Shown here: one piece after another, positions 38,990-56,069 of the stretch
Position numbering within the stretch: position 1 is the first letter of the stretch
Layout of the letters: every line of letters begins with the position of its first letter
IMG/VR virus record: IMGVR_UViG_3300034684_000299
Coordinates: 64,001 to 128,000 of that record
Direction: 5' to 3' (one strand)
Length of the DNA: 64,000 bases
Source: a virus
Translations under genes and position numbers: made by a program
The notes under the pieces: generated by a model
Told to the model about the DNA's origin: nothing
The model's database searches: none
Seen by the model: the letters and a program-made list of their open reading frames with translations, nothing else

Positions 38990-39270
38990 TCAAACAAGGA
39001 GGTAAGTCAACTACCCCACCCTATAGAGGGTGGAGCTTGTGATTAACAAGCTCAGTTGATTAGCCTCAGCCAGGGGGTATTAACCCTATCGGGCTACGTT
39101 ATATGGGAATATATAGTCACCATAGGATGCTCCACAAGTCCTATGCTCTGAGGGCAGTGGTTAAACATATCTGAGGGTAGGAGAAGTGCTGCTGCCATAC
39201 AAAACCCCATATAACATTGGCGATGTGGACTTACCACTACTTTGTAGTGAGTTATTACTCTTTAAGGAGG
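38990..39270 (+). ncRNA. omegaRNA of IscB (5' guide from the flank)
   Basis: Structured non-coding leader of about 260 nt with CTACGTTA and TAACATTGGCGATG blocks typical of IscB leaders. Confidence 0.7.
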
Positions 39271-52276: not shown

Positions 52277-52492
52277 ATGTTTAAATTGTTTTGTAACAAC
52301 TTTGTGCCTGAAGAGGCACGCAAAGGGGCGAAATTAGTTCTGCCCCTTAACACAGGGTTTTTAAGAGACCAGGATGAGGTGTATTTACTAGAGGATTGTA
52401 CATATACCATTAACAAACCAGAAGTACCATTTGTGACAATTAAAATAACCGAAAAAGACCGAGAACTCAACAGAGTTCTCGTCATCTATTAA
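52277..52492 (+). CDS. Hypothetical protein
   Basis: 71-aa ORF with AGGAGGTG SD. Confidence 0.65.
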   Translation: MFKLFCNNFVPEEARKGAKLVLPLNTGFLRDQDEVYLLEDCTYTINKPEVPFVTIKITEKDRELNRVLVIY

Positions 52493-52495
52493 AAA

Positions 52496-52528
52496 AGAGG
52501 AATGAACACGCTTCCTCTTTTTTTTACT
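52496..52528 (+). repeat. 33-bp direct repeat/terminator, copy 2
   Basis: Identical to 52149-52181. Confidence 0.9.
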
Positions 52529-52530
52529 AT

Positions 52531-52783
52531 GTGAACTACTTACCTCTAAAGAGGTAAGCTTCCTAATTCATCGACCGTTGCGACAATGAATGCCCGTCTT
52601 ACACAGTCTCCAAAGGCTTAACATCCCCCAGTTCCTGGGGTAGAGTTCTTTTAAGTAGGAACTAACTGCAATACAATTATATCACATTCGTAAGTAATTA
52701 ACAACGATTTTTGCCTTAAATTAGCCTTGTATTTTCAGCTTTCATCTCTCCAATAAATTGGAGAGTGTTCTCGCTGAATTTTC
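52531..52783 (-). mobile_element. Non-autonomous IS200/IS605-type element (PATE-like), copy 2
   Basis: Reverse complement of 31650-31902 with two substitutions; TTAT 5' flank, TCAC end. Confidence 0.85.
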
Positions 52784-52807
52784 ATAATATTAAAAAAATC
52801 TTTAAAA

Positions 52808-52823
52808 TATTGGTATATATAAT
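52808..52823 (+). promoter_or_regulatory. Repeated TTGGTATATATAAT promoter motif
   Basis: Upstream of the 52845 ORF. Confidence 0.65.
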
Positions 52824-52844
52824 ATAGGAGGTGAAGAAAGAAAA

Positions 52845-53246
52845 ATGGATAAAATGAAAGTAGTAAGGAGAAAGAAAAAAGTATTGCTGTTAAACGAATT
52901 AGGTCACGACGTAGCCTCCTGGAGATTTAAAAGTCTCCAGAAGGCAGAAAAAGCAAAAAAGGAAATGAAAAAACAAAACTTAGAAGAGATTTACATGAAA
53001 GTAAAACAAAGGTGGGAACACAAGGAAGTCGAAGTACCACCTTGTGATTTACACGACCTTATAGTGTCGAGAAAAAAAAGGTTGGAAAAATGGGAGCGTT
53101 TGAGGAAAGTCAAATTGGCACATCCAGAAATATTTGAGCATTTAGAATTTGTTGAAGAAGAACCAAGTGTGCTTAACATTTGGTTCTATAGGGGCATAGA
53201 AAATAAGAGAACCGGTCACGATATAAAGTTTTTCTGGGAAGAGTAA
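52845..53246 (+). CDS. Hypothetical basic protein
   Basis: 133-aa ORF with AGGAGGTG SD and a downstream hairpin. Confidence 0.65.
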   Translation: MDKMKVVRRKKKVLLLNELGHDVASWRFKSLQKAEKAKKEMKKQNLEEIYMKVKQRWEHKEVEVPPCDLHDLIVSRKKRLEKWERLRKVKLAHPEIFEHLEFVEEEPSVLNIWFYRGIENKRTGHDIKFFWEE

Positions 53247-53300
53247 GGAGAGTGTCAATACTCTCCTTACTCTCCTTTTTTTAAAAAGGAGGTATAAGGA

Positions 53301-53591
53301 ATGACATATTTGGGTAATGCTTTCTCCCTTCAAATGTTGGCGGAGATTCCGTCAACTTTGAAAGTGGAAGAGGTTTCTTGGGGAGAAATTCCCGCGGGAG
53401 TTGTTTCAGTTGTCGGACACCAAGACACGGCCCGTGTCTTGGGTGTTCCGTTTAATAGAGTATCTATAACGTTGGAAAAGGGTGACATTTTATATGTTGC
53501 CCAGCTCCAAGGAGGACGTCTCCCAGAGGGGGCTACCACGCTCCCCGAGGGATTTAGTTTTAAATATTTGAAAGTCGAGATTGTTGATTAA
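53301..53591 (+). CDS. acrIII-1: AcrIII-1-like viral ring nuclease (DUF1874/B116 family)
   Basis: YLGNAFSLQML, VGHQDTA (catalytic His), NRVSITLEKGD and RLPEG motifs match the DUF1874 family as recalled. Confidence 0.8.
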   Translation: MTYLGNAFSLQMLAEIPSTLKVEEVSWGEIPAGVVSVVGHQDTARVLGVPFNRVSITLEKGDILYVAQLQGGRLPEGATTLPEGFSFKYLKVEIVD

Positions 53592-53605
53592 TCTCGACTT
53601 TCCTC

Positions 53606-53793
53606 CAACTAAGCACATTTTCCGTTCAGCTTAGTTGAAGTATGAACGAACGGATAGGTTTGCAGGCGTTGCCCCGCTACGTCTGCAAAACCGAAAACTA
53701 ATGCGGGGCTGCATTTCAAACCTAGCAGAATAAACTGTTGGGTTTGAAATGCAGAATTCTCACCTCGCTTCATAGAATCACTCCTCACCTCCT
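53606..53793 (+). ncRNA. Uncharacterised structured RNA (two H-type pseudoknots plus a long hairpin)
   Basis: Stems 53606-14/53629-37 with 53621-27/53648-54; 53659-69/53679-89 with 53671-77/53703-09; 19-bp hairpin 53710-53753; G:U pairs favour the plus strand. Confidence 0.6.
53609..53773 (-). CDS. Possible 54-aa antisense sORF
   Basis: AGGAGGTGAGGAG SD 7 nt before ATG; MKRGENSAFQTQQFILLGLKCSPALVFGF...; may be a by-product of an anti-SD tract. Confidence 0.25.
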   Translation of the reverse strand: MKRGENSAFQTQQFILLGLKCSPALVFGFADVAGQRLQTYPFVHTSTKLNGKCA

Positions 53794-53813
53794 AAACACA
53801 TGTTTATTTATTG

Positions 53814-53870
53814 GGAACGTGCGTACAGGCAGGCGTACGTTCCATCTTTTTTTTATTTTTTTTATTTTTT
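53814..53870 (+). terminator. Intrinsic terminator
   Basis: GGAACGTGCG/CGTACGTTCC stem followed by long T runs. Confidence 0.7.
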
Positions 53871-53875
53871 ATTTT

Positions 53876-53948
53876 GGGGACGAATGGGATTGACAAGGAT
53901 ACTGGTGCACATCCTTGGATGCGGGTTCGATTCCCGCCGTCTCCACCA
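53876..53948 (+). ncRNA. Mini-tmRNA: tRNA-like domain only
   Basis: Acceptor GGGGACG/CGTCTCC with G3:U70, A discriminator, encoded CCA, stemless D-loop ending GAC, T arm GCGGG-TTCGATT-CCCGC; helix 2 closed by a 10-nt loop. Confidence 0.8.
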
Positions 53949-53986
53949 GTTAGCTTCAAAAATTTAATTAGAAAGGAGGGAAGAAT

Positions 53987-54190
53987 ATGTTAACAGACAA
54001 AGAAATCTTTCAAGAAGTTTTAGATGTTATTGAAGGGAGGAAAAAAATAGAAGAAGTAGATGATATAGTCAGATGGGAATATGAAAGATGGATCAGATAC
54101 ATCAACGGTGGTATTCCCATTGAGACAGTTCTGAGAGAGTTGAAACACAGGTTGGAAACAGGAAACTTCCATCCTGAGTATGAAGAATAA
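53987..54190 (+). CDS. Small acidic hypothetical protein
   Basis: 67 aa, AAGGAGG SD. Confidence 0.65.
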   Translation: MLTDKEIFQEVLDVIEGRKKIEEVDDIVRWEYERWIRYINGGIPIETVLRELKHRLETGNFHPEYEE

Positions 54191-54208
54191 TTTTTTTGCA
54201 AAAAAAGA

Positions 54209-54237
54209 TTGACAAAAAGAGAAAAAAGTAGTATCAT
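54209..54237 (+). promoter_or_regulatory. Sigma70 promoter for the Y RNA/tRNA/Ro60 operon
   Basis: TTGACA-17 nt-TATCAT, about 8 nt before the first Y RNA. Confidence 0.8.
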
Positions 54238-54245
54238 AAATATAT

Positions 54246-54304
54246 GGGGTGGTGTGTGAAACGGTTACTTCGGTTGAGAATAATACCGTTTCCAGTTGTT
54301 CCCC
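54246..54304 (+). ncRNA. Short Y RNA-like RNA (no tRNA domain)
   Basis: Shares TGGTG..TGAA, TACTTCG and TGTTCC motifs with the two longer copies; GGGG/CCCC closing stem. Confidence 0.65.
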
Positions 54305-54323
54305 TCATTTTATAGAAAAAAGT

Positions 54324-54460
54324 ACTACGTTGGTGTAGTGAAGAGTTACTTCGCCTATTAAGCGGGAGGTCGCAGGTTCAAATCCTGCCTGTATGCTTCG
54401 GCATACAGTAGCTCAGCGGTAGAGCGCCATAAATTACTCTTCACGCCTGTTCCACGTAGT
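54324..54460 (+). ncRNA. yrlA: YrlA-type Y RNA with permuted tRNA-like domain
   Basis: Closing stem ACTACGT/ACGTAGT, T arm GCAGG-TTCAAAT-CCTGC, acceptor stem capped by TTCG, D arm GCTC-AGCGGTA-GAGC; upstream of Ro60. Confidence 0.85.
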
Positions 54461-54467
54461 ATTTCAT

Positions 54468-54612
54468 AGCTGTGTTGGTGTAATGAAGAGATACTTCGCT
54501 TGTTAAGCCGGTAATGCTGGTTCAACTCCAGCCTGAAGTATTCCATTGGAATACTCAGTCGTCTAACGGGTAGGACGCCGTAAATTTCTCTTCATGCTTG
54601 TTCCACACAGCT
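54468..54612 (+). ncRNA. yrlA: YrlA-type Y RNA with permuted tRNA-like domain
   Basis: Closing stem AGCTGTGT/ACACAGCT, T arm GCTGG-TTCAACT-CCAGC, capped acceptor stem, D arm GTC-TAACGGGTA-GGAC. Confidence 0.85.
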
Positions 54613-54633
54613 TTTCTTTTTTTATCATTTTTT

Positions 54634-54708
54634 TCTGGGTTAGCTCAAAGGAAGAGCAAGTGGCTGTTAACCACTTTGTTGGGGGTTCGAATCCCTCACC
54701 CAGAGCCA
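54634..54708 (+). tRNA. tRNA-Asn (GTT)
   Basis: Acceptor TCTGGGT/ACCCAGA, anticodon arm AGTGG-CTGTTAA-CCACT, TTCGAAT loop, G discriminator, encoded CCA. Confidence 0.93.
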
Positions 54709-54746
54709 TATTACTGGTTCCAAAAAAATAAAAAGGTGGTGGTAAA

Positions 54747-56069
54747 ATGAGTAAAGTAAATGTGAAGAAAAGTTCCCCTTTAAAAACCCATGAAGGAGGG
54801 CCAGCAAGAGAAATAAACGCTTTGTGGAAGTTAAAACGTTCTCTCATGGCCTGTTTGCTCTGGGAAGATACCTTCTACGAAGAAGGTGTTGACATTGCCC
54901 AGAGAATAGAAACATTAGTGAGTGAAGTAAAACCCGAAGAAGCAAAAAATCTAGCAATTGAAGCTAGAGAGAATATGAAGATTAGGCATGCACCTCTTTG
55001 GGTAGTTCGTGCTATGGCACGATTACCTGAACACAAAAGACTAGTGTCTGAGACGCTGGAAAGAGTGATTCAGCGTCCAGATGAATTAACAGAATTTTTA
55101 GCTCTTTACTGGTTAGATGGGAAACAACCTCTATCTAACCAAGTAAAGAAAGGATTGGCGAAGGCGTTTACAAAATTTGACGCCTATCAACTCGCCAAGT
55201 ACAACAGGGATGGGCAAGTGAAACTGAGAGACGTTATGTTTCTCACCCATCCAAAACCGTTAAACTTAGAACAGGAAGAAATATGGAAACAACTCGTGGA
55301 TGGTACTTTACCTTCTCCAGAAACATGGGAGGTAGAATTATCTGCGGGGAAAGATAAAAAAGAAACATGGGAAAGATTACTTTCCCAGAATAAATTAGGA
55401 GCTCTAGCTTTATTAAGGAATTTGAGAAACATGGAAGAAGTCGGAGTGAATAGAAAATTAATTATTGAAGCACTCCGACGTATGAAAACTGAAAAAGTTC
55501 TTCCATTTAGGTTTATTGCTGCTGCGAGATATGCTCCTTCACTAGAACCATACCTTGAGGAAGCAATGTTTAAATGTATTCCTCAAGAGAAAATAATTCA
55601 AGGTAAAACAATTCTATTAATTGATGTCTCTGGTTCGATGGAAAGGGCTCTGTCTGAAAAATCAGATATGACAAGAATGGATGCAGCAGCAGGACTTGCC
55701 ATCTTAGCTAGAGAAATGTGTGAAGAAGTAAATGTATATACGTTTTCAGATAATGAAAAATTAGTACCACCTCGAAGGGGATTTGCTCTTCGAGATGCAA
55801 TAGTTAATAGTCAGTCTCACAATGGCACTTATCTTGGTAGGTCAATAAGTGCTATAAATCAAAAAGAACAATATGATAGAATAATAGTATTTACAGACGA
55901 GCAATCTGCAGATTCAGTACCTGCTCCGGAATCTAGAGGTTACATGATCAATGTAGCCAATTACGAGAATGGAGTAGGCTACGGATCTTGGACACACATT
56001 GATGGTTTTTCAGAAGCTGTCATAGATTATATATTGGAATATGAAAAATTGATTAATAATAATTATTAG
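54747..56069 (+). CDS. rsr: Ro60/Rsr TROVE-domain RNA-binding protein
   Basis: THEGG, LLWEDTFYEEG, QRPDELTEFL, YQLAKY, ALLRNLRNM; vWA MIDAS IDVSGSM and FTDEQ. Confidence 0.92.
   Translation: MSKVNVKKSSPLKTHEGGPAREINALWKLKRSLMACLLWEDTFYEEGVDIAQRIETLVSEVKPEEAKNLAIEARENMKIRHAPLWVVRAMARLPEHKRLVSETLERVIQRPDELTEFLALYWLDGKQPLSNQVKKGLAKAFTKFDAYQLAKYNRDGQVKLRDVMFLTHPKPLNLEQEEIWKQLVDGTLPSPETWEVELSAGKDKKETWERLLSQNKLGALALLRNLRNMEEVGVNRKLIIEALRRMKTEKVLPFRFIAAARYAPSLEPYLEEAMFKCIPQEKIIQGKTILLIDVSGSMERALSEKSDMTRMDAAAGLAILAREMCEEVNVYTFSDNEKLVPPRRGFALRDAIVNSQSHNGTYLGRSISAINQKEQYDRIIVFTDEQSADSVPAPESRGYMINVANYENGVGYGSWTHIDGFSEAVIDYILEYEKLINNNY

Follow-up and report, generated by a model that had tools for sequence, protein, structure and literature searches.

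A conserved tandem-pseudoknot RNA domain upstream of a TLD-only mini-tmRNA in a 185-kb oil-field phage

What is the GC-rich stretch that separates a B116/AcrIII-1-like gene from a TLD-only mini-tmRNA in a 185-kb oil-field phage, and does the mini-tmRNA depend on it? We analyzed a window of 64,000 nucleotides (positions 64,001 to 128,000 of IMG/VR record IMGVR_UViG_3300034684_000299). The original prediction on this locus described two pseudoknots, a 19-bp hairpin and an intrinsic terminator. It took them for a discrete non-coding RNA, possibly the missing part of tmRNA supplied in trans. Our analysis indicates that the element, located at 53603-53753 on the plus strand, is a real, conserved RNA domain, structured and non-coding, in which two H-type pseudoknots (H1/PK1 and H2/PK2) follow each other and the second stacks on the 19-bp hairpin H3. 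The mini-tmRNA neither includes the element nor depends on it, and the element looks like part of the 3' UTR of the B116-like gene or of an intercistronic stretch.

All of the predicted structures are present in the sequence (Table 1). In the transcript, the element lies between the stop codon of the B116/AcrIII-1-like gene and the intrinsic terminator. H3 is followed by a G-poor, C-rich tail, the terminator and the 73-nt TLD-only tmRNA, in that order. The conserved block starts at ~53553, about 15 nt upstream of the stop-codon hairpin. The G+C content is 0.455-0.48 in the bins covering the element and mostly 0.30-0.40 in the flanking protein-coding sequence, in agreement with the predicted enrichment in AT-rich surroundings. 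In each pseudoknot the loop of a hairpin base-pairs with single-stranded sequence further downstream, and the lengths of the groove-crossing loops were judged from textbook rules. PK1 has an S1 of 9-12 bp, an S2 of 7 bp, an L1 of 6-7 nt, an L2 of 1 nt and an L3 of 8-11 nt; its H1 stem can be extended to 12 positions (53603-53614/53629-53640). PK2 has an S1 of 13 bp, an S2 of 7 bp, an L1 of 1 nt, an L2 of 1 nt and an L3 of 10 nt. For this pseudoknot the 7-bp loop pairing was predicted correctly, and the stem predicted at 11 bp is in fact 13 bp with one bulged A. The downstream strand of PK2 has an alternative partner, as 53703-53708 can also form a nested helix with 53763-53768, in competition with PK2 (-8.6 kcal/mol versus -15.0 kcal/mol for the PK2 stem).

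Table 1. Positions of the element and of its neighbors, in window coordinates.
Feature	Position	Strand	Description
Stop-codon hairpin, 12 bp	53570-53602	+	Spans the stop codon of the B116/AcrIII-1-like gene (53589-53591); kept in 6/6 variants
H1, stem 1 of PK1	53603-53640	+	9-bp core 53606-53614/53629-53637; 14-15-nt loop
PK1 second stem	53621-53654	+	Loop 7-mer 53621-53627 perfectly complementary to 53648-53654
H2, stem 1 of PK2	53657-53692	+	53657-53669/53679-53692, 13 bp, one bulged A, 9-nt loop
PK2 second stem	53671-53709	+	H2-loop 7-mer 53671-53677 perfectly complementary to 53703-53709; abuts H3
H3 hairpin, 19 bp	53710-53753	+	53710-53728/53735-53753; 6-nt loop 53729-53734, loop not conserved
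3' end of the 163-nt block	53754-53771	+	Carries the first anti-SD-like motif
C-rich, G-poor tail	53772-53797	+	Predicted single-stranded; 9-nt copy of the 16S rRNA 3' end (anti-SD) at 53785-53793
Intrinsic terminator	53814-53875	+	11-bp hairpin 53814-53843; long T-run reaching the first base of the mini-tmRNA
TLD-only mini-tmRNA	53876-53948	+	Neighbor; RF00023 match
Antisense 54-codon ORF	53609-53773	-	Behind a strong SD; rejected as a gene

Both statistics and natural variation support the fold. The nested fold of the module has a predicted energy of -70.8 kcal/mol on the plus strand (z = -8.8) and -61.9 kcal/mol on the minus strand (z = -5.3). Among 3000 dinucleotide shuffles, 8 contained one 7-bp loop-to-downstream complement and 0 contained two. 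The shuffle script scored one native pseudoknot, as the MFE fold adds two spurious pairs in the H2 loop, and PK2 was verified separately. Four further variants of the element were recovered from oil-field and subsurface assemblies, giving a comparative set of five distinct, closely related variants with few independent substitutions. Across this set 95.8% of the paired cells are retained. Five pairs changed on both sides in the five variants, compared with 0-1 when the partners were slid.

The compensatory changes are located in H1, H2 and PK2. Two events fall in H1: three variants have U-A in place of C-G, and L048 has G-C in place of A-U. In H2, U-A is replaced by C-G and C-G by U-A, and an indel in the 5' strand (L040 and L048) is absorbed by a shifted bulge. 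Both partners of a PK2 pair changed in L048/L049, from G-C to A-U. All 14 columns of the PK1 pairing are invariant, and the 5' part of the loop and the intervening linker vary. Overall, 2 of the 28 columns in the pseudoknot strands are variable (both in PK2), compared with 17 of the 38 other unpaired columns (p = 0.0009). The H3 stem is retained, with U:G becoming U-A in two variants; three variants have one C.A mismatch near its base and an opened closing pair. Changes in the terminator of the relatives stay paired through G:U or U:G on the plus strand only, and in the stop-codon hairpin one A-to-G change turns U-A into U:G on that strand. This covariation, together with the decay of both candidate reading frames described below, leads us to read the element as a structured non-coding RNA.

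The three G:U pairs that had been taken to favor the plus strand are present (one in H2, two in H3), but they support this strand less than proposed: in L045 and L048 the folds of the two strands are of about the same quality, and two positions that are C.A mismatches on the plus strand become G:U on the minus strand. The main reasons for assigning the element to the plus strand are the T-run, present on one side only, the neighboring genes, all of which are on the plus strand, and the G:U-type changes in the stop-codon hairpin and the terminator. No promoter-like site was found on the plus strand in 52808-54209, suggesting that the element is made as the 3' UTR of the B116-like gene. The original prediction was thus right about a structured non-coding RNA, and the word discrete goes further than the sequence shows. 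Another 'terminator', at 53240-53273, immediately precedes the B116 SD. For two runs labeled RNA, the contigs of the locus are as deep as those in the DNA runs from the corresponding samples. In one RNA run contigs are missing over 53798-53880, a stretch that contains the low-complexity T-run where assemblies break. We also considered stimulation of frameshifting or read-through in the B116-like gene and rejected it on inspection, as there is no in-frame slippery heptamer and the next in-frame stop is 6 codons on.

The element could alternatively reflect a gene on the opposite strand. A 54-codon ORF with a strong SD 7 nt before its ATG covers the whole block, is annotated by gene callers in some contigs, and could encode a type I toxin with the plus-strand RNA as its antitoxin. 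In L043/44, moreover, the missing block (53609-53771) matches the ORF to the base, from the G of the ATG to the stop, a coincidence that is unexplained. Natural variation argues strongly against a gene. Counted from the ATG, the length of the ORF across the five variants is 54, 47, 72, 11 and 11 codons. Codon 12 is a nonsense codon in L045 and L048/49 (three contigs), and L038 and L040 have frameshifts that lead to divergent C-termini (47 and 72 codons), so that the ORF is broken or frameshifted in four of the five variants. Almost all changes are non-synonymous (4-16, versus 0-3 synonymous); between the window and L045 there are 0 synonymous, 5 non-synonymous and 1 nonsense changes. Selection on the antisense peptide, which would have overturned the non-coding reading, is therefore absent. 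The nearest promoter-like site on the minus strand (54013-53984) is ~210 nt upstream of the SD and no minus-strand terminator was found. The peptide has no clean membrane helix and no match in Pfam, and its database relatives are all from the same locus. We therefore rejected the ORF as a gene and regard a toxin-antitoxin locus as very unlikely. In Ibs/Sib-type loci, a small toxin ORF is fully antisense to a structured sRNA. The arrangement here is similar in that a small ORF with a strong SD lies wholly antisense to a structured RNA ending in a terminator, but it differs in the broken or frameshifted ORF and in the lack of purifying selection, a nearby promoter and a clear membrane helix.

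A signal at the DNA level, such as a cruciform, an origin, or a packaging or recombination site, is hardly credible. Inverted repeats are strand-symmetric and the variants have the block either whole or not at all, as such a signal would allow, but loop-to-downstream complementarity with a compensatory change is meaningful in a single strand only. The G:T positions are retained, a terminator follows directly downstream, and the block has neither terminal inverted repeats nor a target duplication. For the same lack of terminal repeats and duplication, and because it is too short and has the wrong terminal nucleotides on the plus strand, the 163-nt block was also rejected on inspection as a group I or II intron or a MITE.

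According to the original proposal, the TLD-only tmRNA would obtain its pseudoknot and mRNA-like body in trans from the element, and the tag frame would end in the H3 loop. This idea has some attractive features. Strings of H-type pseudoknots are a hallmark of tmRNA, the mini-tmRNA adjoins the element in every element-bearing variant, and in the window the stop of one frame falls in the H3 loop. The variants contradict it. Indels in L038, L040 and L048, three of the four other variants, shift the frame ending in NLAE, and loop changes that remove the TAA abolish its stop in three of the five (L040, L045 and L048). This frame runs inside the H2, PK2 and H3 stems and not in single-stranded RNA, as a conserved tag frame in an mRNA-like domain would. 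In L043/44 the tail, the terminator and the mini-tmRNA are kept and the 163-nt block is absent; in L043 only ~14 nt separate the terminator hairpin from the TLD. The element itself is located ~120 nt upstream of the TLD, on the far side of the terminator.

The mini-tmRNA scores 65.4 bits against Rfam RF00023 (gathering score 47), and its P2 helix carries compensatory changes among the relatives. A 10-nt loop takes the place of the 310-position tmRNA body, giving a closed hairpin in one piece; no body is inserted between the TLD halves, as in a one-piece tmRNA, and the TLD is unsplit and does not pair with the element, as the parts of a two-piece tmRNA would. It thus has no free strand for docking a second piece, and predicted duplexes between the element and the TLD were not significant compared with shuffles (z = +0.9). 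The permuted-tmRNA model RF04321 (gathering score 47) reached just 25.3 bits and covered the T-arm/acceptor only. A cmscan search of 53200-54800 with E up to 10 reported tmRNA at 53876-53948 only, and cmscan assigned the element to no Rfam family, with noise-level matches only (at the gathering threshold and at E up to 10). BLAST of the element against 80 bacterial tmRNA bodies, and against 151 genomes from one candidate host phylum, showed no similarity, and such a neighbor is absent at seven unrelated phage TLD-only tmRNA loci. A tmRNA body in trans is therefore extremely unlikely, and the mini-tmRNA is best read as a stand-alone molecule of the DS6A type.

The element does resemble PK2-PK4 and helix 5 of bacterial tmRNA (RF00023) in its consecutive H-type pseudoknots with GC-rich second stems, in adjoining a TLD and, in the window, in having a stop codon in a hairpin loop. 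It differs in being neither joined nor paired to the TLD, in having no conserved tag frame or resume context, and in its much longer stems (9-13 bp). TLD-only (CDS-less) tmRNAs of the mycobacteriophage DS6A type have been reported to inhibit host tmRNA when expressed in E. coli (PMC4131195, PMC11915505). The neighboring 73-nt gene is of the same type, but the portions of these reports drawn on here describe no pseudoknot domain upstream of the DS6A TLD-only tmRNA (PMC4131195, PMC11915505).

The C-rich tail between H3 and the terminator is identical at 26 of 26 positions in the four other element-bearing variants and at 24 of 26 in L043, which has no structured block, and it is unpaired in the predicted fold of every variant. 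Its 9-mer is an exact match to the universal 3'-terminal sequence of 16S rRNA and occurs once in the 185-kb genome; two further partial anti-SD copies are present. Duplex prediction between the tail and the start regions of the phage genes gave a best value of -24.9 kcal/mol, compared with a mean best of -25.9 kcal/mol for shuffled tails. As L043/44 have the tail and the terminator but not the block, the role of the tail, whatever it is, does not require the block.

We tentatively propose a 3'-UTR RNA that ends at the terminator, with the element as its nuclease-resistant body and the invariant anti-SD-like tail as its working surface. The element, the C-rich tail and the terminator would form the last ~270 nt of the RNA of the B116-like gene, and this 3' part would most likely accumulate as a stable 3'-UTR-derived RNA. 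The compact pseudoknotted body may block 5'-to-3' decay and serve as a scaffold, a nuclease resistance that we purely infer, and the terminator hairpin would block 3'-to-5' decay. The tail, exposed between the body and the terminator, could be an interaction surface. Through its resemblance to the anti-SD it may bind purine-rich SD-like RNA or a protein recognizing the 16S 3' end. The pattern of conservation supports the proposal: the tail is almost invariant and unpaired, and the module is 84-96% identical to that of the relatives, compared with only 69-75% for the upstream coding sequence.

A purely cis-acting role in RNA stability or processing, with no function in trans, is a somewhat less likely explanation. 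The element could insulate the anti-CRISPR-like mRNA, or set the cutting of a polycistronic RNA where RNase P would release the mini-tmRNA. It is positioned exactly at the boundary between an mRNA and a tRNA-like RNA, and the 'terminator' upstream of the B116 SD likewise directly precedes a gene. No promoter-like site was found for the mini-tmRNA, which begins right where the T-run ends; together with the ~14-nt gap in L043, this suggests that the mini-tmRNA is made by read-through and processing. However, the terminator hairpin alone would already protect the 3' end, L043 does without the block, and the perfectly conserved tail would be left unaccounted for. The read-through into the mini-tmRNA also raises the idea of an attenuator, in which an aptamer sensing a factor or ligand sets the efficiency of the terminator (53814-53843) and thereby the read-through into the mini-tmRNA and a 67-aa gene. 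The element is upstream of a terminator whose read-through seems to be needed, and the conserved alternative partner of the PK2 3' strand (53763-53768) makes a two-state switch conceivable. We nevertheless consider an attenuator quite improbable. No anti-terminator pairing was found by inspection, and the H1 loop is complementary to at most 5-6 nt of the terminator 5' arm. Between the domain and the terminator lie ~60 nt of unstructured spacer, in which a 10-nt indel occurs. No Rfam riboswitch family matched, and L043 has no such domain.

The tail may point in yet another direction. The double-pseudoknot fold could be a nuclease-proof scaffold that displays copies of the 16S rRNA 3' end, namely the tail and a motif at 53760-53767, as a stable decoy. 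Such an RNA would act alongside the tag-less mini-tmRNA, the Y-RNA mimics and Rsr, either sponging SD-led host mRNAs during take-over or diverting a host defense factor, a nuclease or another protein, directed at the anti-SD tail of ribosomes. Toxins with such a cleavage site exist, for example MazF-mt3. The invariance of the tail, the exact 9-nt match unique in the genome with its two partial copies, and the abundance of RNA mimics nearby (the TLD-only tmRNA, YrlA-like RNAs and Rsr) are consistent with this idea. On the other hand, the reverse complement of any strong SD looks alike, and the tail may therefore be a relic. L043, moreover, has the tail without the scaffold. We regard a decoy as improbable.

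Several known systems help to place the 3'-UTR RNA that we propose. Enterobacterial 3'-UTR sRNAs such as CpxQ and DapZ share the terminator of their mRNA and are most conserved just upstream of it, and in the Firmicute sRNAs RoxS and RsaE, C-rich single strands act against SD regions. The locus shares the terminator of the upstream mRNA and has a conserved single-stranded stretch just 5' of it. By analogy, this C-rich, G-poor, SD-complementary segment, more conserved than the coding sequence, could act in a similar way. Those sRNAs have no 150-nt double-pseudoknot body, however, and target prediction in the phage gave nothing here. In tobamovirus and tymovirus RNAs, the coding region is followed by a run of H-type pseudoknots and an aminoacylatable tRNA-like structure at the 3' end. 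The order on the phage RNA is the same, a resemblance only: here a strong terminator and ~120 nt lie between the pseudoknots and the tRNA-like domain, which as a tmRNA TLD would be removed by RNase P, and the host is a bacterium. The xrRNAs of flaviviruses and plant viruses have a defined ring-like fold at a three-way junction. The element may be analogous as a compact pseudoknotted 3'-UTR fold that could leave a stable downstream fragment, but the ring-like fold is not evident in it.

So far, no homolog has been found outside this phage lineage in the sets searched. None was detected at 11 viral loci with B116-like genes of 57-67% identity, at 3 viral Rsr loci, by BLAST of 5 whole related phage records, or in IMG/VR using back-translated patterns of the antisense ORF. 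The covariance model R1 found no further copy in the phage's own genome and four of the five related records. A PK2+H3 pattern retrieved only the already known L041 contig from JGI metagenomes and had 0 matches in 185,579 species genomes. No homolog was found by BLAST and R1 in 151 genomes of the phylum of a Thermotogota-titled MAG, one candidate host phylum, tmRNA genes included; one weak match there is an SD on the opposite strand. The 3' end of the TLD is common to very diverse bacteria and thus points to no one host. Around the element, the AcrIII-1-like gene, the TLD-only tmRNA, YrlA-like RNAs, tRNA-Asn and Rsr form a cluster of RNA mimicry and repair. No significant duplex was predicted between the element and the Y-RNA region, tRNA-Asn or the start regions of the B116-like and 67-aa genes, and the 67-aa neighbor gave no lead in Pfam, PHROG or the Atlas.

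The element represents a new family of structured RNAs that has support from comparison of variants and matches nothing in Rfam. So far the family is confined to a single lineage of large phages, sampled in oil fields and the subsurface. The negative result on tmRNA is important for the neighboring gene, as the mini-tmRNA is to be read as a stand-alone molecule of the DS6A type. If the tail truly acts as an anti-SD mimic or decoy, it would provide phages with a new route to interfere with host translation or with RNA-targeting defense.

In the window (positions 64001-128000 within an IMG/VR virus record 185 kb long), a structured RNA element lies between a gene of the AcrIII-1 (B116) type and a 'mini-tmRNA' gene that encodes only the tRNA-like domain (TLD) of tmRNA. 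The 96-aa product of the former scores 23.9 bits against Pfam PF08960, slightly below the cut-off of 26, and matches phrog_5063 (E = 8e-13), PDB 2x4i (E = 1e-6, with its GH motif aligned) and PDB 6scf (E = 3e-5). In the mini-tmRNA, 10 nt replace the tmRNA body, which occupies 310 positions in the Rfam model. Downstream are a 67-aa gene without known family, YrlA-like RNAs, tRNA-Asn and a Rsr/TROVE protein. The two YrlA (Y RNA-like) matches (54330-54452 and 54475-54609; 33.6 and 19 bits, below the Rfam gathering score of 69) are preceded by a near-consensus promoter (54209-54237) and followed by the tRNA-Asn (54634-54708) and Rsr/TROVE (54747-56069) genes. Elsewhere, a full-length HEARO (IscB omega-type) RNA is found at 39006-39234 (146 bits, far over the gathering score). 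The stretch at 52490-52850, 350 nt without any ORF of at least 30 aa, has negative GC skew, a terminator at its start, several internal hairpins and a fold z of -3.0, and could hold a second non-coding RNA.

Features of the element and its immediate surroundings (window coordinates)
Feature	Position	Strand	Remarks
B116/AcrIII-1-like gene, 96 aa	stop codon 53589-53591	+	STIV B116/AcrIII-1 family match
Stop-codon hairpin	53570-53602	+	12 bp
Hairpin H1	53603-53640	+	
Pseudoknot PK1	53621-53627 with 53648-53654	+	H1 loop 7-mer, exactly complementary
Hairpin H2	53657-53692	+	13 bp with one bulge, 9-nt loop
Pseudoknot PK2	53671-53677 with 53703-53709	+	nearly whole H2 loop, exactly complementary
Hairpin H3	53710-53753	+	19 bp, immediately against PK2
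C-rich tail	3' of H3	+	~45 nt, almost G-free, predicted unpaired
16S-like segment	53785-53793	+	9-nt copy of 16S rRNA 3' end, inside C-rich tail
Terminator	hairpin 53814-53843	+	11 bp, then long T-run
Mini-tmRNA	53876-53948	+	73-nt TLD, no gap after T-run; Rfam 65.4 bits
Antisense ORF	53609-53773	-	excellent SD; does not behave as a gene

The fold described originally is real, and it exceeds chance expectation by three measures. For the 169-nt module the folding energy is -70.8 kcal/mol (z = -8.8), against -61.9 kcal/mol (z = -5.3) for the reverse strand. Among 3000 dinucleotide shuffles, just 8 contained a hairpin loop with a 7-mer fully complementary to a site no more than 30 nt farther 3', and none contained two. 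The loop lengths of PK1 (L1 6-7, L2 1, L3 8-11 nt) and PK2 (L1 1, L2 1, L3 10 nt) are within what textbook sterics allow for an H-type pseudoknot. The element is a genuine and novel structured RNA of a phage, with a narrow distribution.

Ordinary homolog searches for the element returned no relatives; these were reached through two protein-database searches, one starting from the antisense ORF, a frame that is often annotated by gene callers, and the other from the 67-aa neighbor. Their contigs come from oil-field, hydrocarbon, bioreactor and subsurface assemblies and have identical gene order. Five distinct versions of the element were obtained (the window, L038/39, L040/41, L045 and L048/49). 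The sixth relative, L043/44 (L043:2268-2504, L044:810-1046), lacks 163 nt equivalent to 53609-53771. It retains the tail, identical at 24/26 positions, together with the stop hairpin, terminator and mini-tmRNA. In sequencing runs from two oil-field samples (X5 and X7), DNA contigs link 53619 and 53691 across a run of unknown letters, probably representing a more divergent L048-type PK1/H2 rather than a deletion.

In the five-sequence alignment, 95.8% of cells hold standard pairs, and both sides change at five pairs; shifting the 3' partners by 1-3 columns as a control leaves 0-1 such pairs. The compensatory events are C-G to U-A and A-U to G-C in H1, U-A to C-G and C-G to U-A in H2, and G-C to A-U in PK2 of L048/49; a 1-nt deletion in the H2 5' strand is accommodated by a shifted bulge. 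Only 2 of 28 pseudoknot-strand columns vary, both from the PK2 double change, whereas 17 of the remaining 38 unpaired columns in the structured part do (Fisher p = 0.0009). The PK1 strands are invariant while the 5' part of the H1 loop and the linker change, so support for PK1 comes from conservation pattern, not covariation. C.A mismatches occur in the H1 extension (window and L045) and close to the H3 base (three variants), and an opened H3 closing pair is also seen. Because the five sequences are closely related, the changes amount to about five independent events; the covariation supports the fold, short of formal proof.

Three G:U pairs had been taken to favor the plus strand. The pairs exist, but read on the minus strand both C.A mismatches become G:U, and in L045 and L048 both strands fold equally well. 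The plus strand is favored chiefly on other grounds: a one-sided terminator, the placement of every neighboring gene on that strand, substitutions in the stop hairpin and terminator that remain paired only as plus-strand G:U, and a minus strand on which neither a promoter-like site near the SD of the antisense ORF nor a terminator was found.

The antisense ORF spans 54, 47, 72, 11 and 11 codons in the five variants and is frameshifted in L038 and L040. A G-to-A change at 53740 (L045, L048/49) improves an H3 pair and creates an antisense stop at codon 12. Its changes are overwhelmingly non-synonymous (window versus L045: 0 synonymous, 5 non-synonymous, 1 nonsense). Length variation, nonsense codon, frameshifts and non-synonymous excess argue against the ORF being a gene; selection on an antisense peptide, which would have undermined the RNA interpretation, was not found, and the ORF decays among the variants. 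That the element is an antisense gene is very improbable. The gap in L043/44 nevertheless coincides to the base with this ORF, from the G of its ATG to its stop: of the start codon, AT comes from the junction and G is the final base of the missing block, while the stop is the first three bases of that block, whose boundary also splits the H1 5' strand. We estimate a chance origin at a probability of order 1e-3, and every proposed model leaves the coincidence unaccounted for.

The suggestion that the element supplies the tmRNA body in trans is not supported, and we regard it as extremely improbable. The stop codon placed in the H3 loop, as in tmRNA, is present only in the window and L038, and this loop is the least conserved portion of H3. 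The proposed tag frame is as unstable as the antisense ORF and passes through stems, whereas genuine tmRNA tag frames are mostly single-stranded. The TLD is a closed single-piece molecule; the permuted-tmRNA model stays below threshold and matches only the T-arm. Shuffled TLDs are predicted to pair with the element as well as the native one does. Comparison with 80 bacterial tmRNAs that share the 3' end showed no similarity to their bodies, and 151 genomes from a single candidate host phylum likewise yielded nothing similar. L043/44 keeps the TLD without the block, and the sequence upstream of TLD-only tmRNA-like genes in seven further viral contigs is protein-coding or unrelated.

A precedent for TLD-only tmRNAs exists in mycobacteriophage DS6A, where they are reported to act as inhibitors of host tmRNA (PMC4131195, PMC11915505). 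The mini-tmRNA is explicable without a partner. Its P2 helix carries two compensatory changes among the window, L040, L043 and L048, indicating that the TLD itself is under structural selection; two positions of the 10-nt loop also vary. The genes in the seven IMG/VR contigs (L015-L021), which are unrelated, measure 68-69 nt between pattern ends, represent two or three sequence types and mostly lie directly 3' of a protein-coding gene. Such mini-tmRNAs recur among phages.

Neither the element nor the mini-tmRNA has a promoter-like site ahead of it, and the terminator hairpin of L043 ends a mere ~14 nt before the TLD, suggesting one transcript with leaky hairpin/T-run punctuation. The element looks like a 3'-UTR or intercistronic RNA. 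Farther upstream, a 133-aa gene ends in a terminator-like hairpin and T-run (53240-53300), with the SD of the B116-like gene within ~15 nt and no promoter-like site between; the local 'terminators' may act as leaky punctuation within a single long transcript. Identity between variants rises from 69-75% in the B116-like coding sequence (53301-53560 versus L038, L040, L045 and L048) to 84-96% in the module and 100% in the tail of element-bearing variants; the non-coding block and the downstream 67-aa gene together are 84-100% identical. The step lies ~35 nt ahead of the B116-like stop codon, which points to a recombination (mosaic) boundary.

Several roles can be weighed against this background. 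A purely cis role in stability or processing is rather unlikely, and a decoy or sponge function of the 16S-like tail is improbable. Attenuation, in which the PK2 3' strand would use its conserved alternative partner (53763-53768), is quite improbable, and inspection revealed no anti-terminator; a DNA signal is scarcely conceivable. The absence of a promoter-like site, the inverted conservation and the tail, which is G-poor, single-stranded in all folds and just 5' of the terminator, lead us to a tentative proposal, although no target of the tail was found in the phage and L043 has the tail without the body. The element is possibly a 3'-UTR-derived RNA, in which the pseudoknotted body would form a stable, probably nuclease-resistant 5' domain and the C-rich tail upstream of the terminator would act as the seed.
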